Source: a virus (taxonomy: Duplodnaviria > Heunggongvirae > Uroviricota > Caudoviricetes). From it: DNA of 7,097 bases. The translations under genes and the position numbers were made by a program. This document shows positions 3,400-6,457 of the stretch, in pieces. Within the stretch, counting starts at the first letter, position 1, and each line of letters begins with the position of its first letter. A model generated the notes under the pieces. It saw only the letters and a program-made list of their open reading frames with translations, ran no database searches and was not told the DNA's origin. The DNA is taken from the IMG/VR virus record IMGVR_UViG_2671180846_000033; one strand, given 5' to 3'.

Positions 3400-3449
3400 N
3401 NNNNNNNNNNNNNNNNNNNNNNNNNNNNNNNNNNNNNNNNNNNNNNNNN
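3400..3449. other. Run of 50 N at the O-like/P-like gene junction
   Basis: Directly visible in the sequence. Confidence 1.
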
Positions 3450-4254: not shown

Positions 4255-4692
4255 TCAATGCACCACAACAGACTCGCCGGATGACCCGCCGTCGCTGAAA
4301 TACGCTTTCCGGTAAACTGCCTGGACTGCATCATCATGCGCATCAATTGCCGTGCTCAACGCTTCCTGGGCCGCCAGTAATGCACGGCGCTCAACAGTGT
4401 CAAAAATACTGAGGTGATAACGCAGTTCACGCGGAAGAACAGTCAGGATAGCTGGAATTAGTGCCTGAATTTTTTCAACAGCATCAGGCGTATCCTTTTC
4501 AAGCCAGCGAAAAATATTTTGTATGTTCAATCCAATACCCTCTGTCGTAGAGGTGTCATGCATTGGTGGATAAGTCATTTCAAGCTCAAAATATGCTGTC
4601 GCTATATCATCAGCGATTTTTTTGCGCCCTACCCTCGGATAAAGCAGCCACGCATTCATCGCCATGCGGATGTGCTCATGCTTGATTTTCAT
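4255..4692 (-). CDS. ydaT: YdaT-like protein (CII functional analogue of YdaS/YdaT-type prophages)
   Basis: 145-aa ORF starting MKIKHEHI with a C-terminal segment LIPAILTVLPRELRYHLSIFDTVERRALLAAQEALSTAIDAHDDAVQAVYRKAYF that I recognise as YdaT-family. Its ATG (4692-4690) overlaps the upstream gene's TGA in an ATGA junction. Confidence 0.75.
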   Translation of the reverse strand: MKIKHEHIRMAMNAWLLYPRVGRKKIADDIATAYFELEMTYPPMHDTSTTEGIGLNIQNIFRWLEKDTPDAVEKIQALIPAILTVLPRELRYHLSIFDTVERRALLAAQEALSTAIDAHDDAVQAVYRKAYFSDGGSSGESVVVH

Positions 4693-4949
4693 GAATCAAC
4701 TCCCGCCGCTGCTTGTGCGTTAGCCTGATACTCAACAGGTAAACCATCGGTTGGATTAGGGTATTTATCAGGGCGCAATTCATGCGGAGTTACTCCCCAG
4801 TCAAGCGCCTCACATGCTGGTATAACCTCCTCCGCTGGCACTCGTTTTTTAAACCACCCACTTATGGTTTGCGGTGTTTTACCAAGACGACGCCCTAATT
4901 CTGATTGGCTCATTATTGACAGGATTTTCACTTGAGTACTTTTTTGCAT
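4689..4949 (-). CDS. ydaS: Cro-like HTH regulator, YdaS-like
   Basis: 86-aa ORF with ATG at 4949 preceded by GGAGGG. HTH segment SQSELGRRLGKTPQTISGW; divergent from the repressor gene. Confidence 0.7.
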   Translation of the reverse strand: MQKSTQVKILSIMSQSELGRRLGKTPQTISGWFKKRVPAEEVIPACEALDWGVTPHELRPDKYPNPTDGLPVEYQANAQAAAGVDS

Positions 4950-5075
4950 GTTTCCCTCCGAACTTTACGATGACACCGATAATTACAAATTTAAATTTAA
5001 ATTTCAACTTCTATTTGTAATGCCACTTATCAATTTTTTCTGTAGGATCGCGGAACTAGTTTACGAGGGGTGGTG
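4950..5075. promoter_or_regulatory. Divergent control region between the Cro-like and CI-like genes (OR-like)
   Basis: ATTACAAAT (4982-4990) and its reverse complement ATTTGTAAT (5013-5021) flank a palindromic (AAATTT)x3 tract (4987-5004). The 14-bp motif AATTACAAATTTAA (4981-4994) recurs at 6223-6236. Ribosome-binding sites for both flanking genes are present. Confidence 0.6.
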
Positions 5076-5468
5076 ATGATCTTTGTAAAACGCCTTCAGC
5101 AGGTGTTGCAGGAATTGAATATAAACCAGTCAGAGCTGGGAAGACGTCTTGGTGTAAAACCCCAATCCGTGCAAGGTTGGTTGAAAGGCGTGATGCCAAG
5201 AATGGATAAACTGGAAAAATTAGCAGAGCTCTCACAACATCCCGTCCATTGGTTCTTTATGGAAGAAGAAACTCTCGGCGATAAAATGGCTGTATCCAGT
5301 AATGACAACCAACCGCAACTTACAGAACAACAACGAAAAATCATATCGCTTTTAGATGAGTTACCTCAAAGCGACGCAGAGCAGATCATTCGTGATATGG
5401 AGCAAAAACGCGATTTCTATAAACGGAAACTTGAAGAGTTACTGCGGCAGAAAAACAAAACTGCCTGA
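5076..5468 (+). CDS. CI-like phage repressor, XRE-family HTH with coiled-coil-like C-terminus and no S24 peptidase domain
   Basis: The track ORF starts at GTG 5070; ATG at 5076 is preceded by GAGGGG (5065-5070). HTH segment NQSELGRRLGVKPQSVQGW; C-terminal 50 aa are charged and heptad-like. About 130 aa, too short for a LexA-type cleavage domain. Confidence 0.8.
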   Translation: MIFVKRLQQVLQELNINQSELGRRLGVKPQSVQGWLKGVMPRMDKLEKLAELSQHPVHWFFMEEETLGDKMAVSSNDNQPQLTEQQRKIISLLDELPQSDAEQIIRDMEQKRDFYKRKLEELLRQKNKTA

Positions 5469-5499
5469 TGCATTCCTTTTCTGGAACGAGCATCAGGCA
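5462..5499. terminator. Hairpin between the convergent repressor and higA genes (candidate bidirectional terminator)
   Basis: TGCCTGATGC (5462-5471) pairs with GCATCAGGCA (5490-5499), with inner TTCC/GGAA pairing. A T-rich tract follows on the minus strand (reverse complement of 5441-5461). Confidence 0.5.
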
Positions 5500-5514
5500 A
5501 ATGACTAGCAGATT

Positions 5515-5874
5515 TTATAATCCAACCAGGCTTTCCAGGGGGATACCAAATTGATTATGAAGACGGCGAATCATTGGTAACGTAAGGCTTCTGGTACCAT
5601 TCAACACCTCATAAACCCGATTTTTTTTCCCAATTGCGGGTTCCAAATCTTTCACAGTCAGCCCCTGCTGTTCCATGCGAAATCTTATAGCTTCAATTGG
5701 GGATGGTGGCTCAATGGGATAATGTTTTTTTTCATATTCCTCTATTAGCAAACACATCACCTCAAAAAAATCCCCCTCAGGCGTGTCAATTTCGGGCTCA
5801 TTGTCGAACATGGGTTCAACAGCACGCAACGCGGCTTCATAATCTTGCTCTGTACGAATAGGTTTGATGTTCAT
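5515..5874 (-). CDS. higA: HigA-type antitoxin (XRE HTH, type II TA)
   Basis: 119-aa ORF with C-terminal HTH LTVKDLEPAIGKKNRVYEVLNGTRSLTLPMIRRL. Starts 2 nt after the toxin stop, with GGAG upstream. Confidence 0.8.
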   Translation of the reverse strand: MNIKPIRTEQDYEAALRAVEPMFDNEPEIDTPEGDFFEVMCLLIEEYEKKHYPIEPPSPIEAIRFRMEQQGLTVKDLEPAIGKKNRVYEVLNGTRSLTLPMIRRLHNQFGIPLESLVGL

Positions 5875-5876
5875 GC

Positions 5877-6179
5877 TTACTCCAGTTCGATGGTATCAGC
5901 ATCAATAGCATCGTATTCCTTGTGGTTTCCGATGAATTTAACAAATACCCATCCTCGCTGATACGCAATTGCAACAATTAAACGGTAATGATTACCTTTT
6001 ATGTTGAATACCACGCGCCGGTTTTTCAATATACTGGCCGTTCGGTATTGTGCCTTAATGTCTGCTGGGCTTTTCCAGTCAGCTTTTGCCGCCTCATCCA
6101 CCCATGCCCTTAGCGGTTGTTCTGCATCAGGATTCTCCGCCCAAAAATCCCTGAGTGTTTTAACTGAGATAATCTTCAT
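5877..6179 (-). CDS. higB: HigB-type toxin (RelE/ParE superfamily)
   Basis: HigB-like pattern in the translation, including GNHYRLIV and KFIGNHKEYDAID. The track start (6224) is a TTG; the ATG at 6179 gives about 100 aa. Toxin precedes antitoxin, as in HigBA modules. Confidence 0.8.
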   Translation of the reverse strand: MKIISVKTLRDFWAENPDAEQPLRAWVDEAAKADWKSPADIKAQYRTASILKNRRVVFNIKGNHYRLIVAIAYQRGWVFVKFIGNHKEYDAIDADTIELE

Positions 6180-6190
6180 AACTGTATAGT

Positions 6191-6207
6191 AGTCCCATTT
6201 TGGGACT
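6191..6207. promoter_or_regulatory. Perfect 17-bp palindrome AGTCCCATTTTGGGACT just upstream of higB (candidate HigA/HigBA operator)
   Basis: Read directly from the sequence; lies 12-28 nt upstream of the higB ATG on the minus strand. Confidence 0.5.
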
Positions 6208-6222
6208 GATGCAACAGCCCGC

Positions 6223-6276
6223 AATTACAAATTTAATAATAAACATGTTGACCAGTTAAATTTTAATTTGTAAATT
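6223..6276 (+). promoter_or_regulatory. pL-like promoter/operator region for the rightward early operon (OL-like)
   Basis: Second copy of AATTACAAATTTAA (6223-6236); TTGACC (6248-6253), 17-bp spacer, TAAATT (6271-6276); inverted ATTTGTAA (6266-6273) overlaps the -10. Confidence 0.5.
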
Positions 6277-6457
6277 GTATCCATAAACCCACCCCGCCCC
6301 ACAGAACGCAGGGCAATACTTCGAGTTACCCGGCAGTGGTCAGGGGTTAAGTAGCCAGCCTGAGGCGTATGAACATGACGGCGGGGATTACGTTTAACTA
6401 TGCAGCAGGTTTTTTGTTCCGCTACCCCGGCGTTAAGGGGAAACAGAGGATTTCTCA

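Follow-up and report, generated by a model that had tools for sequence, protein, structure and literature searches.

The 126-bp gap between a repressor gene and a cro-like gene in this phage DNA (positions 4950–5075 of the window, by which we mean the whole 7,097-nucleotide stretch analysed) probably represents the OR of a lambdoid prophage, with three candidate dyad operators interleaved with two divergent promoters, an OL at a PL-like promoter, and a switch formed by a repressor and a Cro-like protein. We put the probability of this reading at about 75%, on grounds of sequence, position, conservation, dyad symmetry, promoter-like hexamers and the identity of two HTH domains.

EHEC O26/O103 genomes carry the lambdoid prophage whose immunity region forms the window, and positions 4600–6400 of the window are identical to a prophage of E. 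coli O26:H11 11368 (NC_013361). Open reading frames and Pfam matches bound the gap with a minus-strand YdaS-family HTH gene (4689–4949) and a plus-strand HTH_3 gene (5076–5468). On one side ydaS (Cro-like) and ydaT (CII-like) run away from the gap; on the other the repressor gene is followed by higA/higB in the opposite orientation and then by a leftward PL-like early promoter. The annotated context in NC_013361 places replication genes on the ydaS side, and ydfC, dicB, an exonuclease and an integrase beyond the second site discussed below. The gap therefore lies between a divergent repressor gene and a cro-like gene heading a replication-gene operon. This immunity type is essentially intact (at least 80% of 4600–6400) in 148 of 5,426 complete E. 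coli genomes, the best matches being O26, O103 and O45 EHEC strains, and relatives are known from Salmonella, Sodalis, Serratia and Arsenophonus. A genome-contig search for relatives returned Arsenophonus and Phlomobacter only, and no isolated phage in the searched collection carried a repressor more than 40% identical to that of the prophage. The cargo slot after the repressor gene holds higBA here, and a PLD-family protein or PaaA/ParE-like genes in relatives. An Rfam search of the entire window gave no match inside or near 4950–5075.

The features that the first-pass annotation reported in the gap were read directly from the sequence, and all lie at the positions it gave: both arms of a 9-bp inverted repeat (ATTACAAAT at 4982–4990 and ATTTGTAAT at 5013–5021), an (AAATTT)x3 run at 4987–5004, and a 14-mer, AATTACAAATTTAA, at 4981–4994 with an exact recurrence at 6223–6236. 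The second 14-mer site also has its own inverted partner, TTTAATTTGTAA at 6262–6273, which that annotation did not contain. Relatives do not conserve the perfect (AAATTT)x3 run, which is specific to this allele: substitutions occur at 4992, 4995, 4996 and 5001 in alleles whose repressors are 93–100% identical.

Judged on the window alone, these repeats are unlikely to have arisen by chance, but only moderately so. About 3% of shuffled versions of the 126-bp region contain a perfect, non-overlapping inverted repeat of 9 bp or more, and about 1% of local-block shuffles give an exact 14-mer that recurs elsewhere in the window; if up to 2 mismatches are allowed, the 14-mer finds 3 matches where 0.15 are expected. 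The degenerate pattern ATTRCANAT, with 1 mismatch allowed, occurs window-wide at chance level (21 matches, 18.7 expected). The strong evidence is comparative, and comes from relatives with repressors 50–100% identical. Relatives from Salmonella, Sodalis, Serratia and Arsenophonus keep the arms and the second site at constant positions. The original proposal of an OR-like divergent control region for a CI-like/Cro-like gene pair is supported. Where the repressors are 50–89% identical, the gap measures 115–137 bp (126–127 bp in 6 of 9 loci) and its conserved blocks are the same.

The gap appears to hold three 17-bp dyad operators with the consensus T-R-C-A-R-N7-Y-T-G-Y-A. Dyads with a 7-bp gap are the mode across relatives (41 observed, 7.5 expected); of the seven dyads with a perfect 10/10 score, six have this gap, each of them at the position of OR2 or OR3. 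The half-sites are retained across clades whose N7 centres differ. The degenerate 17-bp dyad is not enriched within the window (30 sites scoring at least 8/10, 26 expected), and therefore the operator model rests on comparative placement. Operator centres are 19 and 25 bp apart, a spacing fixed among relatives; those of lambda are 23–24 bp apart. A prophage of O157:H7 (L014), whose repressor is 31% identical, has three ACAR-N7-YTGT dyads at spacings of 24 and 25 bp, the third of which overlaps a TAAAAT −10-like hexamer, as OR3 overlaps the PRM-like −10 here.

OR2 (5003–5019, TTCAA-CTTCTAT-TTGTA), whose right half is the core of the right arm, reaches 9/10 here, and three relatives (L004, L009 and L012) have a 10/10 dyad at that position. 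The unbiased dyad profile peaks at 5011.0 for OR2, and 13 close alleles agree at all 17 of its positions. OR3 (5028–5044, TATCA-ATTTTTT-CTGTA), which was missed at first, is a weak site in its own clade (8/10 here) and perfect in L009, L012 and L013; it gives an isolated profile peak at 5036.0 and has 1 of 17 positions variable among the same alleles, compared with 5 of the 8 bp that separate it from OR2. OR1 (4984–5000, TACAA-ATTTAAA-TTTAA) scores 8/10, and its homologue in L013 is a 9/10 dyad. Its strong left half-site is the core of the left arm and its weak right half is conserved; the (AAATTT)x3 run would be its A/T-rich centre and weak half as they stand in the present allele. The register of OR1 is ambiguous, and the least certain of the three, because the A/T tract yields several pseudo-dyads that smear the dyad profile, which peaks nearby at 4995.5 and 4998.5, not at 4992.

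These sites overlap promoter-like elements of both orientations. The promoter scan matched PR as TTGAAA-17-AATTAT with a TG upstream of the −10, which places an extended −10 (TGT-AATTAT) at 4979–4987 and a −35 (TTGAAA, plus-strand TTTCAA) at 5002–5007, both on the minus strand, with a predicted start near 4972. This TG pairs with the CA of the left arm; TG(T/C)AAT is retained in all relatives, and the CAA of the −35 is invariant in the family (C66, A67 and A68 of alignment A1). The scan of the region did not call PRM. A PRM-like promoter is suggested by conservation of its −10, TAGGAT at 5043–5048 on the plus strand (TAGnAT in the family, with T104, A105, G106, A108 and T109 conserved in A1); its −35, ATGCCA at 5020–5025 with a 17-bp spacer, is poor, and 5023–5027 are variable among close alleles. 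Transcription from PRM would start near 5055. OR1 overlaps the PR spacer and −10, OR2 overlaps the PR −35 and is centred at about −44 from the predicted PRM start, and OR3 overlaps the PRM-like −10. As far as sequence can tell, the gap has the arrangement of several (typically three) dyads of 14–20 bp interleaved with two divergent promoters, and its three 17-bp dyads keep their places in all relatives.

The repeated 14-mer had been taken to mark a shared operator, and a second operator cluster is indeed supported at the distant copy, in the form of an OL/PL analogue 1.25 kb away, past the repressor gene and the higBA cargo. The PL-like promoter (6248–6276, plus strand, called by the scan as TTGACC-17-TAAATT and conserved family-wide as TTGACn-17-TAGATT) points away from the immunity region, towards ydfC, dicB, the exonuclease and the integrase, and transcription from it would start near 6283. 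OL2 (6226–6242, TACAA-ATTTAAT-AATAA) is the core of the second 14-mer copy, lies 5 bp upstream of the PL −35 and has a single good half-site only; its TACAAAT(T)TAAT is conserved in all relatives, including loci without higBA. OL1 (6256–6272, TTAAA-TTTTAAT-TTGTA) fills the PL spacer and overlaps the −10, and it matches OR1 at 17 of 18 positions (94% complementary). The OL1/PL spacer sequence is nearly invariant in all relatives from E. coli to Arsenophonus, and the module of OL2, −35, OL1 and −10 is conserved in all clades. Positions 6226–6276 thus carry the same kind of sites again, clustered at an early promoter that faces outward beyond the repressor gene, and because the motif is repeated there, one regulator or regulator pair is expected at both clusters. 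OL1–OL2 spacing ranges from 30 to 32 bp among relatives, which weakens any helical-phasing argument; with OR spacing fixed and OL spacing variable, such an argument holds only partly. The predicted RNA fold of the PL leader (6283–6400) is no better than that of shuffles (z = −0.23). Rha/Ash-family genes are found in the PL operon of two relatives (L003 and L004), a possible lead for an antirepressor.

The two arms of the inverted repeat had been read as halves of one site. The dyad profile and the relatives favour treating them as the outer half-sites of adjacent dyads, OR1 and OR2, over a single 40-bp palindrome. We consider it unlikely that they form one large site, at which a repressor oligomer (tetramer or larger) contacts the outer arms only and clamps the −35 region, the A/T tract serving as a deformable bridge, a geometry close to that implied by the first-pass annotation. 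The arms are the best-conserved half-sites. Their centres lie at 4986 and 5017 in OR, about 3 helical turns apart, and at 6228 and 6270 at the second site, about 4 turns apart, so that arm-to-arm distances of 31 and 42 bp differ by 11 bp, or roughly one turn; the OL arm spacing, however, varies by 2 bp among relatives. PaaR2 of prophage CP-933P is reportedly octameric, with about 78 bp of continuous protection (PMC8630535), but that repressor is of another type and its operators are unlike those here. Both OR2 and OR3 are complete dyads in themselves, with inner half-sites that are conserved, and perfect in several relatives, and OR3 has no distant partner to pair with.

Part of the conservation could reflect promoter constraint, because several conserved bases also belong to promoter elements: they include the TG in the extended −10 of PR and the TA in the −10 hexamers of PRM and PL. 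Taken to its end, this would make the conserved blocks nothing other than −35 hexamers, extended −10 elements and UP-like A/T tracts, with PR and PL sharing a 14–18-mer as paralogous promoters. A YTGTA half-site is fused to the −10 element at each of PR, PRM and PL, so that every conserved YTGTA overlaps a −10, and TTGnAA and TTGACn are −35 hexamers; also counted in its favour is that promoter-like matches in the region are not above chance (5 against 3.6 expected). We nevertheless regard this as very unlikely. Promoter spacers are normally free of sequence constraint, yet that of PL is nearly invariant; the right half of OR2 and OL2 both lie upstream of −35 hexamers; a dyad symmetry whose gap is fixed at 7 bp is no property of promoters; and the region is bordered by genes for two HTH proteins that share a recognition helix.

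The A/T tract had also been called intrinsically bent. This is unsupported, because a repeat every 6 bp does not keep step with the helix (about 10–11 bp) and a wedge model, a rough test, gives a small angle: about 1.5 degrees at the tract and 0.6 degrees for (AAATTT)25, against about 29 degrees for phased A6 tracts. The chance seems slimmer still that the A/T-rich repeats serve host nucleoid proteins (H-NS, IHF, Fis) in silencing a horizontally acquired region, and are not phage-specific operators. The core has a G+C content of 24%, and TATCAATTTTTTC (5028–5040) nearly matches the IHF consensus, WATCAANNNNTTR, but predicted curvature is nil, and the conserved positions are C/G-containing cores (CA/TG) amid A/T runs that vary. 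Least probable of all is that the second 14-mer copy (6223–6236) belongs to the higBA toxin–antitoxin promoter/operator: the copy sits on the side of higB that must carry the higBA promoter, 44 bp upstream of the start, but we reject this reading because the OL2–PL–OL1 module persists without higBA in L009, L011, L012, L013 and the Arsenophonus loci, and a separate higBA palindrome, AGTCCCA-TTT-TGGGACT, is found at 6191–6207.

The two flanking genes encode plausible ligands for the candidate operators. The repressor (WP_000578360.1; 5076–5468, plus strand, 130 aa) matches Pfam HTH_3/HTH_26 only and has no S24 peptidase domain. Its AF2 model comprises an HTH domain (residues 1–61), a disordered linker (62–83) and a C-terminal hairpin of helices 84–94 and 100–127. 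Fold matches are to 434, P22 c2 and SinR, and the N-terminal domain is of 434/P22 type, with a TM of 0.75–0.85 to the 434 and P22 c2 domains. Its recognition helix, VKPQSVQGWL, is invariant across the repressor family. The Cro-like YdaS protein (WP_001172789.1; 4689–4949, minus strand, 86 aa; Pfam YdaS_toxin/HTH_3) is encoded by the first gene of a rightward-type early operon (ydaS–ydaT–replication genes) and has a Cro protein, 3bd1, as its best PDB sequence match. The two proteins have 15 of 26 residues in common within the HTH and nowhere else, and the HTH of each is invariant or nearly so within its own family. Such near-identity argues for shared operators, strengthening the earlier idea of sites for the repressor and/or the Cro-like protein; most likely the candidate operators serve both.

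We infer binding, order of occupancy, PRM activation and any cooperativity or looping from this arrangement. Dimers of the 130-aa HTH repressor would bind OR1–OR3, OL1 and OL2; occupancy of OR1 and OR2 would shut PR, and that of OL1 and OL2 would shut PL. From OR2, which adjoins the weak PRM −35, the repressor could activate its own gene, and at high occupancy OR3 would shut PRM. YdaS, with almost the same recognition helix, would bind the same sites in a different order of preference. Two further observations may point to a higher-order clamp: the promoter-proximal operators are asymmetric in a strictly conserved way (every relative has TTAAA-N7-TTGTA at PR as well as at PL), and paired sites are 19 bp apart at OR and 30–32 bp apart at OL, a difference of about one helical turn. 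That the repressor bridges OR and OL across 1.25 kb, in a loop enclosing its own gene and the swappable cargo slot, is an unlikely extension of the operator model; if true, cargo expression would be tied to the lysogenic state.

The closest described layout is that of CP-933P (PaaR2/YdaS/YdaT, E. coli O157:H7; PMC8630535, PMC9986795), in which a short non-cleavable repressor is divergent from ydaS–ydaT and replication genes, OR separates the two genes, and past the toxin–antitoxin cargo that follows the repressor gene there is a further operator/promoter set (OL/PL). There, CI-like and Cro-like proteins footprint overlapping OR sites and repress a PL (PMC8630535). Both prophages also have a TTGATTN6AATCAA YdaT operator at the ydaS/ydaT junction. 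The putative site here, TTGATTTTCATGAATCAA at 4682–4699, is an exact match at the same position as the footprinted OM site of CP-933P (PMC9986795), and would be a part of the same switch outside the region first noted. YdaT here has a Pfam match and hits PDB 8bt1/3c4r (E=5e-29 and 2e-30, respectively); the YdaT of L014, a close relative of those chains, shares 47% identity with it. L014 itself was rejected as CP-933P because it has a repressor beginning MMSALE..., a 108-bp gap and a YdaT that resembles the CP-933P-type chains closely without being identical to them.

Immunity specificity differs between the two systems. CP-933P operators are of the GTTTAGTAA type, and no GTTTAGTAA-like site occurs in OR or OL here. 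PaaR2 starts MQKKEIRRL... (its first ~20 residues only, deduced from published primers) and is leaderless, whereas the present repressor starts MIFVKRLQQ... and has a leader of about 20 nt with a Shine–Dalgarno sequence. Thus, given the absence of such sites and the differing N-termini, the prophage should be heteroimmune to CP-933P. Additionally, the intergenic gap is 97 bp in CP-933P and 126 bp here, and the cargo there, paaA2–parE2, is co-transcribed with the repressor gene, whereas higBA here lies on the opposite strand.

Phages 434 and P22 likewise have three dyad operators over divergent PR and PRM and a second set at PL, and their repressor and Cro share recognition helix and operators; their repressors have the N-terminal fold of the one described here, which differs from cI/c2 in lacking the S24 autocleavage domain. 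The 434 operator is ACAA-N6-TTGT. The half-site core here (ACAA/TTGT) resembles it, with a dyad 1 bp longer (N7) and, unlike 434, a loosely specified first half-site base (A, G or T). In the alignment a Pro stands opposite Gln28 of 434, which may be linked to this looseness.

In overall build, the repressor is of the Gifsy/DicA type, at about 130 aa with an N-terminal HTH_3, a linker, a helical C-terminal part carrying the L..LP.S(E/D) motif and no S24 peptidase, as in GfoR/GtgR of Gifsy-1/-2, DicA of Qin and RacR of Rac. Homology is detectable: identity is 32% to the Gifsy-1/-2 repressor (tblastn, E=8e-10), 22% over the full length to DicA (E=2e-7) and 23% to RacR. Those short repressors are inactivated by antirepressors, not by RecA-mediated cleavage (PMC3121763, PMC10448788). 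Recognition helices and operators differ from those here: inspection of the Gifsy-2 OR found no TRCAR-N7-YTGYA dyad, and the DicA operator is TTGTTAG-N6-CTAACAA.

The control region is real and conserved, but of a textbook kind, and it adds no new principle because its logic is that of lambda, 434 and CP-933P. What it provides for this immunity type is an operator consensus open to testing, T-R-C-A-R-N7-Y-T-G-Y-A, together with a map of the promoters. The map places the higBA cargo relative to the switch, and predicts that the prophage would be heteroimmune to CP-933P, Qin, Rac and Gifsy.

The 126-bp gap between a divergent ydaS-like gene (4689-4949, minus strand, 86 aa, Pfam YdaS_toxin/HTH_3) and a repressor gene (5076-5468, plus strand, 130 aa, HTH_3) has the character of an OR-like control region with a second operator set elsewhere, as the first-pass annotation proposed. 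The details differ from that proposal: we find three 17-bp dyads (OR1, OR2 and OR3), a pair of sites at the second cluster (OL1 and OL2) and no bent-DNA element. The underlying repeats were borne out by reading the sequence, namely the left arm ATTACAAAT (4982-4990), its reverse complement ATTTGTAAT (5013-5021), the A/T tract AAATTTAAATTTAAATTT (4987-5004) and the 14-mer AATTACAAATTTAA (4981-4994), with an exact second copy at 6223-6236. An inverted partner of this second site, TTTAATTTGTAA at 6262-6273, had been overlooked. Judged by themselves within the window, these repeats are improbable only to a moderate degree: ~3% of shuffles of the gap region contain a perfect inverted repeat of 9 bp or longer, and ~1% of local-block shuffles of the rest of the window contain an exact recurrence of the 14-mer.

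The segment 4600-6400 occurs at 100% identity in a prophage of E. coli O26:H11 str. 11368 and in many O26, O103 and O45 EHEC strains; at least 80% of it is present in 148 of 5426 complete genomes. In the annotated O26 record, a leftward block (RusA ... replication protein P, a DUF1376/DnaT-type initiator, YdaT and the YdaS-like regulator) is followed by the gap, the rightward HTH repressor, leftward HigA and HigB, and the second site, beyond which ydfC, dicB, an exonuclease, a DUF4224 protein and an integrase all run rightward. This is the gene order of a lambdoid immunity region, and in lambda OL/PL occupies the place corresponding to the second site. Being a draft scaffold, the window contains two 50-nt runs of N (2344-2393 and 3400-3449), scaffold gaps inside the DUF1627 and replication genes that break local ORF calls; the second replaces 185 nt of O26 11368 sequence. 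The first 1.9 kb (1-1922), a low-GC block with a 257-aa ORF at 496-1269, is not colinear with the O26:H11 11368 prophage, which suggests a mosaic junction or insertion adjoining the replication module. A partial match to sok antitoxin RNA (RF01794, 1-60, minus strand; 52.9 bits, under the gathering score of 59) is truncated by the window end, and a hok/sok-type module probably begins just beyond it.

A protein search recovered repressor homologues in E. coli (89% identity), Salmonella (71-74%), Sodalis (71%), Serratia (58%), metagenomic contigs (64% and 58%), and Arsenophonus and Phlomobacter (50-54%); among INPHARED isolated phages, none was >40% identical. Every relative locus reaching upstream of the repressor carries a divergent ydaS-family gene; the gap between the two genes measures 115-137 bp, and 126-127 bp in six of nine aligned loci. 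Alignments of these nine gaps, and of 25 distinct alleles, show a conserved core between variable flanks, with the blocks ATT-R-CA-n-AT, TTAAATT-n-CAA, A-n-TTG-Y-A-R-TG, TA-n-CA and T-n-TGTAG-n-AT.

We scored pairs of the half-sites T-R-C-A-R and Y-T-G-Y-A at all spacings in the OR and OL regions of relatives. The commonest spacing was 7 bp (41 matches versus 7.5 expected); the 6-bp class (38 matches) mostly reflected slippage of these sites within A/T runs. Of the seven perfect (10/10) dyads, six have the 7-bp gap, and all six fall at two fixed positions, the first represented by TGCAATTCATAATTGCA in Salmonella, TGCAAATATTAATTGCA in Sodalis and TACAAGGTATATTTGCA in Serratia, and the second by TACAAAAATATTCTGTA, TACAAAGAAACTTTGTA and TACAGAAAATTTCTGTA. 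The window has OR2 (5003-5019, TTCAA-CTTCTAT-TTGTA, 9/10) at the first and OR3 (5028-5044, TATCA-ATTTTTT-CTGTA, 8/10) at the second, and OR1 (4984-5000, TACAA-ATTTAAA-TTTAA, 8/10) has a 9/10 counterpart, TACATATTTAATTTGTA, in one relative (L013). Centre spacings of 19 bp (OR1-OR2) and 25 bp (OR2-OR3) hold in every locus. In an unbiased profile of dyad symmetry across nine clades, the peaks lie at 5011.0 and 5036.0, precisely the predicted centres of OR2 and OR3; symmetry leaves the register of OR1 unfixed because the A/T tract smears pseudo-dyads over 4988-5008. Among 13 close alleles, variable positions number 0/17 in OR2, 1/17 in OR3 and 4/17 in OR1, against 5/8 between OR2 and OR3 and 10/27 in the repressor leader. 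The N7 centres vary from clade to clade while the half-sites are retained, as would be expected of sites read by an HTH dimer. Degenerate dyads are not enriched within the window alone (30 sites scoring at least 8/10 versus 26 expected), and the case for operators is comparative rather than one of statistics inside the window.

The inverted repeat of the first-pass annotation is present, but its arms belong to two sites, one being the outer half-site of OR1 and the other that of OR2; with each site itself a dyad, the pair mimics one 40-bp palindrome centred on 5001.5. (AAATTT)x3 is present, but as a perfect repeat it is specific to the window allele: other alleles, whose repressor is identical or almost so, have AAATTTAATTTTAAATTT, AAATTTAAACTTAAATTT, AAATTTAACTTTAAATTT and others, and one of these changes, T4996C, stays within the Y of the half-site consensus. 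The suggested intrinsic bend finds no support, since a repeat every 6 bp does not keep phase with the helix, and a rough wedge-model calculation gives ~1.5 degrees at the tract and 0.6 degrees for (AAATTT)25, compared with ~29 degrees for phased A6 tracts. The tract is better described as OR1's A/T-rich centre and weak half, together with the spacer of PR.

A promoter scan called a PR-like promoter towards ydaS (minus strand; TTGAAA 5007-5002, 17-bp spacer, AATTAT 4984-4979, upstream TG), whose TG(T/C)AAT and -35 TTG are kept in all relatives, and a PL-like promoter at the second site (plus strand; TTGACC 6248-6253, 17-bp spacer, TAAATT 6271-6276). It made no call for the repressor gene, for which the most evident PRM candidate is a conserved TAGnAT (5043-5048) preceded by a poor -35, ATGCCA (5020-5025). 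A YTGTA half-site is fused to each -10 (TTTGTAATTAT in PR, TCTGTAGGAT in PRM, TTTGTAAATT in PL), and OR2 overlaps the PR -35. The predicted transcription starts are ~4972 on the minus strand and ~5055 and ~6283 on the plus strand. Relative to the putative PRM start, OR2 and OR3 are centred at ~-44 and ~-19, near the positions of lambda OR2 and OR3 relative to PRM.

The second site is a putative OL/PL. Its module (TACAAAT(T)TAAT...TAA, TTGACn, the 17-bp spacer TTAAATTTTAATTTG, TAGATT) is nearly invariant 3' of the repressor in E. coli, Salmonella, Sodalis, Serratia, a metagenomic relative and Arsenophonus, and a promoter spacer would hardly be so conserved unless it were a binding site. OL1 (6256-6272) and OR1 agree at 17/18 positions, OL2 (6226-6242) has a single strong half-site only, and their centres lie 30 bp apart here and 30-32 bp in relatives. 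A higBA operator is rejected as the reading of this site, as the module also occurs at loci without higBA. Separately, a perfect 7-bp inverted repeat, AGTCCCA-TTT-TGGGACT (6191-6207), lies just upstream of higB (start 6179) and is kept in two higBA-carrying relatives (L002, L004); it probably serves as the operator for HigA/HigBA autoregulation, and a TTGCAT-17-TACTAT promoter may surround it.

The slot between repressor and OL/PL (5469-6225) carries different cargo among the relatives. The window and L002-L005 have higBA there, L006 and L007 encode a PLDc_2 protein and others, and L008 encodes a PaaA2-like antitoxin together with a TM2 protein; L012 has small ORFs, and L009, L011 and L013 have next to nothing. 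The slot resembles an exchangeable site for morons or defence genes such as rexAB in lambda. Between the convergent repressor and higA genes, a perfect 10-bp hairpin (TGCCTGATGC / GCATCAGGCA, 18-nt loop, 5462-5499) overlaps the stop codon of the repressor gene and may act as a bidirectional terminator; the terminator scan did not call it because it has no T run. The PL-like leader (6287-6389) shares 92-97% identity with unannotated stretches in ~10 isolated E. coli siphophages that otherwise have little in common with the region; no Rfam family matches it, and the RNA fold predicted for it does not improve on that of shuffled sequences (z = -0.23).

Both gene products are candidate binders. 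Between E. coli and Arsenophonus the repressor HTH segment NQSELGRRLGVKPQSVQGWL does not vary at all, which would match the conserved half-site, while the repressor linker and parts of its C-terminus diverge. The YdaS-like protein, with the motif QSELGRRLGK(T/R/K)PQT(I/V).(G/A/S/V)WF, is 58% identical to the repressor over 26 HTH residues and unrelated elsewhere; a common recognition helix with common operators is the pattern of 434 and P22. In an AF2 model of the repressor, a five-helix HTH domain (1-61, pLDDT ~90) is joined by a disordered linker (62-83) to a helical hairpin (84-127), with fold matches to 434 repressor and Cro, P22 c2 and SinR; Pfam found no S24 peptidase domain. Aligned to 434 repressor, Gln29 and Ser30 are kept and Gln28 is Pro, and the half-site would resemble the 434 ACAA site but with its first base free (A, G or T).

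The switch of prophage CP-933P is among the closest known systems: PaaR2 and YdaS footprints overlap in its 97-bp OR, both proteins repress PL beyond the paaA2-parE2 cargo (PMC8630535), and YdaT is CII-like in action (PMC9986795). The window shares YdaT, which matches solved structures 8bt1 and 3c4r, and an exact match to the YdaT operator TTGATTN6AATCAA, TTGATTTTCATGAATCAA, spans the ydaS stop/ydaT start (4682-4699). This is the place of the footprinted CP-933P OM site (PMC9986795), which makes a PRE-like, YdaT-activated repressor promoter likely. However, CP-933P-type operators (GTTTAGTAA type) are absent from the window OR and OL, and both immunity specificity and the PaaR2 N-terminus differ. 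A prophage of O157:H7 strain ECP19-198 (L014) encodes a repressor 31% identical, followed by relB-like and ParE genes. Its 108-bp OR has three ACAR-N7-YTGT dyads (2792-2857) whose centres are separated by 24 and 25 bp; a TAAAAT -10-like hexamer is overlapped by the third, and the Cro-like protein and repressor of L014 have a common QQTV.QW recognition helix. Thus, the three-dyad architecture is found again in a distant relative, which represents another uncharacterised type of immunity. Gifsy-1/-2 repressors (32% identity), DicA (22%) and RacR (23%) are likewise short and non-cleavable. Antirepressors relieve repression by the Gifsy proteins and DicA (PMC3121763, PMC10448788), whose operators differ from those described here. 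By analogy with such systems, we infer protein binding, occupancy order, PRM activation and any OR-OL looping. The immunity specificity is previously uncharacterised, within a well-known class of switch.
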